This document shows, one piece after another, positions 601 through 3,738 of a stretch of 4,612 nt of DNA. The DNA lies in the IMG/VR virus record IMGVR_UViG_2693429700_000015; one strand, written 5' to 3'. A program made the translations under genes and the position numbers. The notes below the pieces were generated by a model. That model searched no databases. It was not told the DNA's origin and saw only the letters and a list, made by a program, of their open reading frames with translations. Every line of letters starts with the position of its first letter. Positions within the stretch are counted from its first letter, which is position 1. Source of the stretch: a virus. Lineage: Duplodnaviria; Heunggongvirae; Uroviricota; Caudoviricetes.

Positions 601-990
601 CTAACATTTTCTTTTTACTTTTCCAACAAAAGCTTTGGTTGAATCCATATTTCCATAACCGGAAATGGTTTTTGACATTAAAACTGTTCCAGTAGGATGT
701 ATTACCCATGAGTCGATAACGCGTTGAGTTTCGCCATTCGCGCCGATTCCTATGATGGAGTTTTTAGACAATTCTTTGTAAGCCATGCCGCCCGCATCTG
801 TCCCAGAATATGTGATGCTGGCATCTTCACCGCTTGTCTTAATGATGAATGTTCCACTAAAACCATCTTCTTCCGGATGGAAATTATTTCGCTCTGAATA
901 GCTTATTCCGCGCATATCTCCAACGACCCAGCACTCTGCTGTAGCCCCAAAAGATATGAATAAGAACATAGCAGCAAGAAATTGCTTCAC
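601..990 (-). CDS. hypothetical secreted/periplasmic protein with Sec-type signal peptide
   Basis: 129-aa ORF with GTG start at 990-988 preceded by a strong Shine-Dalgarno (GGAGG at 1000-996, 5-nt spacer). The N-terminus MKQFLAAMFLFISFGATA-E has a basic residue, a hydrophobic core and an A-x-A cleavage motif. The mature protein has one Cys near its N-terminus and one at the extreme C-terminus. Family not recognised. Confidence 0.6.
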   Translation of the reverse strand: MKQFLAAMFLFISFGATAECWVVGDMRGISYSERNNFHPEEDGFSGTFIIKTSGEDASITYSGTDAGGMAYKELSKNSIIGIGANGETQRVIDSWVIHPTGTVLMSKTISGYGNMDSTKAFVGKVKRKC

Positions 991-1052
991 ACCAACCTCC
1001 TTAGTTTTGAGCAGGATACCAGATGATACTTTATTGGTGGAGTGGTGTGTGA

Positions 1053-1227
1053 AAACGTGTCAACGACAAACCATCCACAACTTGGACGAATGATTTAGCA
1101 AAAAGTGCTATTTTTGGTGTTTGGTGTCATAGAAACGTGAATAGCTTACTTTTCAACATTGCATGAAACTTGCAGGAAATGTGACATTACCTTATAGGTA
1201 ACTTCGGCGAAAATGCAGTAAATGTGA
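1053..1227 (+). repeat. recurring AAANGTG(A) motif, at least 5 copies, in the divergent intergenic region
   Basis: AAACGTG at 1053-1059, AAAAGTG at 1101-1107, AAACGTGA at 1133-1140, AAATGTGA at 1177-1184, AAATGTGA at 1220-1227. The last three are spaced 44 and 43 bp apart. Far more copies than expected by chance for a 6-specified-base motif in about 350 bp. Confidence 0.35.
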
Positions 1228-1364
1228 AACGTAATGGTTTAAACATGTCGCTAAAGTGGTTGTAAGTTAGCCTCCGAAGGATTGCTGATAGCTTTGTTAT
1301 AGTATTAAATGACATTTGACATAGTTGGATACTTAGCTGCGGCTATCAAGATGGAGGTATGTTT

Positions 1365-3506: not shown

Positions 3507-3738
3507 TTCGCTTGGATGCAGTAGTCAAAGAGATTGCGATTACCATTTTAAGACCAAATTTTGTTCATGGCGAATCATTTGGCACGAACGAAAAATTGAG
3601 AAGAGAAAGAGTATTCAGTGGCAAGCGCACATTTTCAGAAGTGATGCTTGATGCGGCAAAGAAATCAAAACAGTGAAGCCCCAACTGCGGTAACAGTCAG
3701 GGCTTCGGTTGTCGGTAAATTCGTGGAGAAAAACCAAC

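Follow-up and report, generated by a model that had tools for sequence, protein, structure and literature searches.

A predicted MarA/SoxS/Rob binding site in a conserved non-coding element upstream of a Panacea cassette in a P22-like prophage

The spacer between a leftward secreted-protein gene and a rightward Panacea operon in the viral DNA analyzed here (4,612 nt in full, hereafter the window) carries on its minus strand (1092–1111) a predicted marbox/soxbox (ATAGCACTTTTTGCTAAATC) that is, judged by its likeness to sites bound in vivo, very likely a real binding site for MarA, SoxS or Rob. The spacer (358 bp; 991–1358, or 991–1364 with the second ATG, used in RefSeq, as the start) is composite: a junction at its left end provides the ribosome binding site (RBS) of the leftward gene, and perhaps its −10 element, and a conserved element with a putative weak promoter serves the cargo on the right. 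With moderate confidence, we favor the reading that the spacer is the control region of a moron and that the predicted marbox, the one element of a recognizable kind in it, links transcription from the region, whichever promoter it serves, to host stress. Binding of MarA, SoxS or Rob to the marbox as a monomer would tie transcription of the region to stresses such as oxidants, salicylate-type drugs and bile salts. The conserved upstream element (1098–1310), which travels with different, mostly toxin-antitoxin, cargo genes, would end in a weak sigma-70 promoter (TTGCTG-17-TTAAAT) with a start site near 1317, and a cargo-specific leader with the TAGCTGCGGCTA palindrome would come next, after the promoter. 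We document here the motif statistics, the quality of the marbox, the membership of the element in a family, the boundaries of the cassette and the lack of strong promoters and RNA signals. An earlier note made from the letters alone had proposed that the spacer is regulatory DNA, a view borne out by its non-random, conserved motifs.

The window is a portion of a P22-like (Lederbergvirus) prophage. A DNA-injection gene, present with its 3′ end, stops at 576 and is followed by the leftward secreted-protein gene (601–990, minus strand), which codes for a protein of 129 amino acids (phrog_2651, function unknown) with a signal peptide (MKQFLAAMFLFISFGATA). The junction (991–1028, minus strand) contains the leftward RBS AAGGAGG (996–1002) and a candidate leftward −10 element (TATCAT, 1023–1028) and is common to many left-hand genes and right-hand cassettes. 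On the other side of the spacer, the plus strand encodes the PanA antitoxin (1359–1808, likely start codon at 1365), which has a Panacea domain only, and a putative toxin of 140 amino acids (1814–2236; phrog_8366, no Pfam match). The right end of the cassette is a terminator hairpin (2236–2265) that is also found in phages without the cassette. Farther downstream is the immI region with the Mnt-like and Arc repressors, the sar RNA and the antirepressor Ant. The sar antisense RNA (Rfam RF00262, 87 bits; 3672–3738, minus strand) lies between the Arc-family gene pair and the antirepressor gene, an arrangement typical of the P22 immI region. A search of 5,426 complete E. coli genomes found the spacer itself in 85 of them, and five phage records, which include Emek, phiv205-1, EC.P3 and E212, have it as well; identity is 93–99% throughout, and none of these copies is annotated.

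The boundaries of the cassette among approximately 100 related viral contigs indicate that the Panacea operon and its whole upstream region behave as a moron. The conserved junction runs to about 1021–1043 and is followed, depending on the phage, by more than 15 alternative cassettes. Some phages have 142–1043 joined straight to the terminator (2236–2265) with no cassette, and others contain 982–2263 and lack the secreted-protein gene. In this P22-like prophage the moron occupies the position between the DNA-injection gene and immI: it is a discrete insertion between conserved phage genes with a terminator at its end. The only candidate for a promoter of its own in the lysogen is the weak, conserved TTGCTG-17-TTAAAT. 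As in the morons of lambdoid phages, which comprise a promoter, a gene and a terminator between conserved genes, there is a conserved junction, a terminator and an absence of the insertion from otherwise similar phages. In contrast to lambdoid morons, an upstream element of approximately 210 nt is conserved here across cargo and phage types (P22-like, HK639 and SW-37). We considered and rejected two loci (L004 and L186) as independent modules; they retain only the left part of the spacer through secondary deletions (1220–2655, and from 1163 into a ClpP-like gene). We also observed that the junction sequence CACACCAACCTCCTTAGTTTTGnGCAGGATACCA(GATGATA) (window 991–1028; loci L036–L115) is a hot spot for cargo exchange, with its many unrelated cassettes, and that the same RBS and GTG start serve several different small leftward genes. 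For example, L004 (2790–2990, minus strand) has, in place of the secreted-protein gene, an unannotated ORF for a 63-amino acid membrane protein with the same leader and GTG start.

The marbox is an asymmetric sequence with a 20-bp consensus (AYNGCACNNWNNRYYAAAYN) (PMC2064960). The minus strand of the window (ATAGCACTTTTTGCTAAAT) agrees with all specified positions of the marbox/soxbox consensus AYNGCACNNWNNRYYAAAY, and one such zero-mismatch marbox (1093–1111) was found in the window versus 0.01 expected. On a scoring matrix built from 86 in vivo sites of MarA, SoxS, Rob or RamA (ChIP-seq), the window marbox reached 17.5 bits, which ranks it third of 87 against the in vivo sites, and none of 300 shuffles of the window scored as high. 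The site also contains a palindrome (TAGCA-N5-TGCTA) and shares GATTTAGCAAAA with the marbox of the mar promoter. Furthermore, it holds the second of five AAANGTG copies (1101–1107, plus strand) that the earlier note had read as a cluster of protein binding sites. This copy is thus explained: on the opposite strand, the marbox has its GCAC recognition element and its A/T spacer there. The other copies all scored 5 bits or less on the same matrix, and none of them qualifies as a marbox. Copy 2 therefore lies in a consensus marbox that the note had missed; the remaining copies are neither marboxes nor sites for the cAMP receptor protein (CRP).

The marbox block is also shared with other loci. 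The only long spacer block in common with an 82%-identical Panacea relative (L029) is the 15-mer GCAAAAAGTGCTATT, and a scan of viral contigs with this 15-mer retrieved more than 120 loci in settings that were clearly non-random and promoter-proximal. Only L003 (3080–3110), from E. coli HH97, has a variant in which the marbox is disrupted (GATCTAGAAAAAAGTGC, 6.3 bits). No toxin gene is annotated downstream of its Panacea gene, and this cassette may therefore be in decay. Directly beyond the marbox of the window is a tandem 7-nt repeat (TTTGGTG TTTGGTG, 1113–1126), which overlaps a second marbox-like sequence on the minus strand (1112–1130; two mismatches, 7.4 bits).

A close version of the site lies under a peak of SoxS and RamA binding in Salmonella. 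The sequence GCACTTTTTGCAAAA was found under a ChIP-seq peak for both regulators at SL1344_2584 (PMC10268841). It is identical to GCACTTTTTGCTAAA of the window at 14 of 15 bases and is a version of the window’s conserved block that stands upstream of the dinI homologue in Gifsy-1 and Gifsy-2. Like the window site, the Gifsy site is in a prophage and upstream of an accessory operon; unlike it, it lies 6 nt upstream of a clear promoter (TTGAAT-17-TATACT) with a LexA box. We found the same arrangement of core and dinI-homologue promoter in L181 (1809–1900), in approximately 25 similar loci and in Gifsy-1 (NC_010392, 37001–37372); the LexA box (TACTGTGTTTATATACAGTA) overlaps the promoter, and the site coincides with the published peak. 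The presence of a marbox core and a LexA box at one promoter suggests dual SOS and SoxS/RamA input. Compared to the marboxes of the mar/sox/rob regulon of E. coli and Salmonella (e.g., marRAB, micF and acrAB), the window site has zero mismatches and a top-three score but is located in a prophage moron in which only weak candidates were found for a promoter with canonical class I or class II spacing.

Class I sites are those in reverse orientation about 53–85 bp upstream of the start site, and class II sites are those in forward orientation about 30–55 bp upstream. On the minus strand, the class II spacing offers no good −10 element, the hexamer at 18 nt being TGGTTT, and no leftward TAnnnT occurs 17–19 nt from the marbox in the window. 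The best rightward candidate of the class I type (GTGTCA-17-TACTTT) would place the marbox center at about −58, but this candidate is a weak one, and the majority haplotype has a damaged version of it. The distance from the marbox to the candidate start site of the cargo is approximately 215 nt. No strong sigma-70 promoter was found on either strand of the spacer, with best scores below the shuffled median (on an approximate matrix), which fits a dependence on an activator. Overall, scans with a promoter-finding program and with the approximate matrix gave nothing strong or consistently placed besides a weak candidate in conserved blocks B7/B8. This candidate for the promoter of the cargo operon (TTGCTG-17-TTAAAT; 1282–1310, plus strand) corresponds to blocks resembling TTGCTN-17/18-TAnnAT in the family described below, whose members diverge by cargo type just beyond them. 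This pattern points to the blocks as a putative, weak cargo promoter. On visual inspection we also dismissed TAGCAC...TTGC as a sigma-54 site, since its spacing is 9 nt rather than 11. In addition, an element of the L206 type had no match among the 5,426 complete E. coli genomes.

The region from the marbox core onward is a member of a conserved non-coding family (1098–1310, plus strand; profile match at 1098–1286, with blocks B7/B8 extending to 1310). We assembled the family from 13 loci retrieved in the 15-mer scan and 43 retrieved in a scan with a different conserved block. The element is 210–330 nt long and non-coding, is also present in phages HK639 and SW-37, and precedes, in different members, at least five kinds of unrelated cargo: the Panacea type of the window, a second Panacea family, an HK639_17-like protein with a YafO-family toxin, and at least two other types of small ORF. 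A profile built from the other cargo types only matched the window at 1098–1286 (E = 7.9e-12). Conservation is highest in the marbox core and then in 1185–1220, which includes an inverted repeat (TTACCT-TAT-AGGTAA; 1187–1201, plus strand). For example, of 42 family members that were found with a pattern excluding GCAAAAAGTGC, 41 have this sequence unchanged. In most members the marbox is a weaker variant (GCACTTTTTGCACAA; 9.2 bits, rank 65 of 87), and in these the block overlaps a possible leftward −35 element (TTGCAC-17-TACAAT/TGGAAT). Because the weaker variant predominates, the conservation of the block may reflect more than MarA-type binding, such as a leftward −35 element.

Phage HK639 has the full element (L354, 2380–3910; 15.06–16.59 kb) in an unannotated gap of 477 bp within the tail gene cluster. 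The two genes downstream of it, gp17 (phrog_8416) and one for a YafO-family toxin, are probably a toxin-antitoxin moron. In L138, L244 and L029, a 10-bp arm (CATTGCTCAA) near the cargo promoter pairs with an inverted copy located upstream (L138) or downstream (L244 and L029) of the −35-like block. Such palindromes at the cargo promoter are specific to a subfamily, and the window has no such pairing. In distant Panacea relatives (Gilliamella, Corynebacterium and others), the upstream DNA is unrelated and the motif is absent.

The AAANGTG repeats described in the earlier note are present at 1053, 1101, 1133, 1177 and 1220, all on the plus strand and with spacings of 48, 32, 44 and 43 nt. Dinucleotide shuffles of 1001–1358 had a mean of 0.32 copies on the plus strand, and none of 5,000 reached five, confirming the enrichment. 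After correction for the post-hoc choice of motif (any 7-mer with one internal N, on either strand), 14 of 2,000 shuffles reached five. Three further copies lie elsewhere in the 4,612 nt, on the minus strand, for a whole-window count of 8 versus 3.9 expected (9 of 200 shuffles reach 8). A sixth copy in the spacer has the related form AAnGTG (AAAGTG; 1253–1258, plus strand) and matches a conserved family block (TCGTCGAACGTG).

The copies differ in how far they are shared. Copy 1 (AAACGTG, 1053–1059, plus strand) is restricted to the window lineage and overlaps a candidate leftward −35 element (TTCACA; 1048–1053, minus strand). Copy 3 (AAACGTG, 1133–1139, plus strand) is AAAAGTG in most relatives and is not conserved in the wider family. 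Copy 4 (1177–1183, plus strand), which is GAACGTGACAAT in other family members, is in the first arm (1171–1184) of a 14-nt repeat (TGCAGGAAATGTGA). The second arm (1214–1227) contains copy 5 (1220–1226, plus strand), which corresponds to the family AAnGTG at +111 to +129. Family-wide, AAnGTG copies are located at about +4, +68, +111–129 and +154 from the start of the core. The phasing of 43–44 bp noted for the last three copies holds in the window but is lost across the wider family.

The conservation of these motifs also bears on the alternative that the repeats are remnants of local duplication with no function of their own, that the conserved DNA is mainly a homology linker for cassette exchange and that the marbox is inert. 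The 14-nt repeat at 1171 and 1214 can be viewed as such a duplication, only some lineages have the phasing and copies 1 and 3, and the many cassettes that follow one junction, together with the existence of deletion derivatives, suit a linker, as does the lack of a clear promoter at the canonical distance from the marbox. However, the marbox block is nearly invariant amid variable flanks and ranks at the top among sites bound in vivo. Furthermore, among 18 distinct versions of the spacer with 34 variable sites, none of the 30 specified AAANGTG positions varied, against approximately 2.9 expected (P of about 0.05), and one variable site fell on the N of the motif (1136, C/A). We consider an inert linker an unlikely explanation.

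The AAnGTG copies of the family also have a strand bias (51 on the plus strand versus 2 on the minus strand) for which the marbox model has no account. This bias favors another reading, in which plus-strand transcription of the conserved element yields a small RNA or a long structured leader, with the AAnGUG copies as signals at the RNA level. Likewise, the inner pair of the TTACCT/AGGTAA hairpin is U·G in 7 of 14 members and pairs on the plus strand only, and some members fold well (z = −4.9 for L244 and −2.9 for HK639). Against this, the z-scores are inconsistent among members and close to zero in the window (0.07 on the plus strand and 0.11 on the minus strand), RNAalifold found no consensus structure among 14 family members, and covariation in the hairpin did not exceed that of shuffles. 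The suggestion that the spacer could hold a small RNA fared no better in an Rfam search of 1001–1358 (no match at E ≤ 1) or in a scan of the spacer, which returned no convincing promoter/terminator pair, no terminator and no strong upstream promoter. We regard an RNA-level role for the repeats as unlikely.

Two of the repeats had also been likened to CRP half-sites. The sequence AAATGTGA, present at 1177 and 1220, equals the left half of the CRP consensus. However, no second half-site within three mismatches of TGTGA-N6-TCACA is present at 1180 or 1223, and matches to this pattern (three mismatches or fewer) number 14 in the window versus 20.6 in shuffles. The family, moreover, does not keep the copies as TGTGA. 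CRP binding at these copies is extremely improbable.

The remaining alternative is the one advanced in the earlier note, that the repeats are operators through which the PanA antitoxin, or a PanA-toxin complex, regulates its own operon. Type II antitoxins commonly autoregulate, and two features close to the cargo genes have the appearance of operators. The first is the tandem TGACAT-T-TGACAT (1310–1322, plus strand), present as described with a TTGACA at 1316–1321, which lies at the candidate start site. The second is the palindrome TAGC-TGCG-GCTA (TAGCTGCGGCTA; 1334–1345, plus strand), which is perfectly conserved with the cargo type of the window. It belongs to a leader specific to this cargo type: 25 nt (1334–1358), including the RBS GGAGG (1353–1357), are identical in distant relatives with the same cargo, and this leader is the only part of the spacer that tracks it. 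The near-palindrome TACCTTATAGGTA of the earlier note is also found where reported (1188–1200), within TTACCTTATAGGTAA at 1187–1201. Readings of the palindromes as sites of the AraC, SlyA or MqsA type presumably fit poorly, or fit in some members only.

Several observations argue against autoregulation through these repeats. A Pfam search of the window PanA returned the SocA_Panacea domain only (residues 30–123 of 149) and no helix-turn-helix (HTH) or other DNA-binding domain; the HTH is carried by some PanA proteins only (PMC8832971). The window operon resembles PanA-PanT type II toxin-antitoxin systems in that a Panacea-domain protein is followed by a small putative toxin, but its PanA has no HTH and its upstream region is common to non-Panacea cargo. 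The location of 1098–1310 upstream of unrelated cargo types means that the repeats, whose DNA (1098–1286) is shared with that cargo, cannot be Panacea-specific operators. The TGACAT tandem, in turn, is specific to a haplotype and unconserved: 4 of its 13 positions differ between the two main haplotypes, whose PanA proteins are identical, and it is absent from the 82%-identical relative L029 and is not conserved in L244. With neither a recognized DNA-binding domain in the antitoxin nor repeats specific to it, we judge autoregulation by PanA very unlikely.

The marbox core is also frequent in phages of a different kind: many of the 15-mer matches fall in the Drexlerviridae (T1-like phages). We collected 126 distinct T1-like copies, which vary at the degenerate positions of the marbox consensus. 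A −10-like hexamer is located 17–19 nt downstream, with no −35 element, in 98 of 111 distinct copies, as in class II geometry. In phage TLS, a 21-nt intergenic direct repeat (aaATAGCACnnnTTGnTAAAA) was described whose function was left open and for which marboxes were not mentioned (PMC11447400). The minus strand of the window at 1113–1093 (AAATAGCACTTTTTGCTAAAT) agrees with 16 of the 17 specified positions of this repeat; the marbox at 1092–1111 is also one instance of it. Like the T1-like copies, the window copy is oriented in the direction of transcription, towards the leftward gene. The T1-like copies, on the other hand, are followed at 18 nt by a −10 element and are approximately 76 nt from the start codon, whereas the window has TGGTTT at 18 nt and the GTG start approximately 102 nt away, so it shows neither the position nor the −10 element of the phage repeats. 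Our literature search found no papers linking T1-like phages with marboxes. Several T1-like loci contain multiple marbox-like 20-mers, among them L196 (7357–7375 and 8277–8295), L175, L121, L233, L223 and L226.

Other phage copies of the core occupy distinct positions. In L188 (1240–1349, minus strand), L137, L166, L201, L145, L142, L151, L171 and L180, the core precedes TTGAAA-17-GATAAT by 14 nt. Downstream of it come a short terminated RNA and a cluster of tRNA genes, and a DUF968 gene and an ORF of 205 amino acids are upstream. This looks like the late promoter region of lambdoid phages with a marbox in the class I position. In L158 (4676–4700), L131, L140, L162 and L194, 25 nt equal to window 1090–1114 form the 3′ end of an ORF (...DDLAKSAIFSK*) and are directly followed by a sequence resembling a Fur box (GATAATGAAAATTATT).

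The functioning of the marbox would mean that a prophage toxin-antitoxin cassette, probably anti-phage, and its neighbor respond to oxidative, antibiotic and bile stress, linking the host stress regulons to prophage accessory genes via SoxS, MarA or Rob. More tentatively, and with less than even confidence, we propose that the element of approximately 210 nt is a portable stress-responsive module that joins the toxin-antitoxin and defense morons of many temperate phages to the Mar/Sox/Rob regulon, and that the same marbox, arranged as in class II, serves most promoters of T1-like phages. If so, phage transcription would depend on Rob, MarA and SoxS as general host factors, and the question published on the 21-nt repeat of T1 and TLS would be answered. 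The marbox sequence offers a concrete and testable answer to that printed question, and the conserved non-coding element could help find new defense and toxin-antitoxin cargo in phage genomes.
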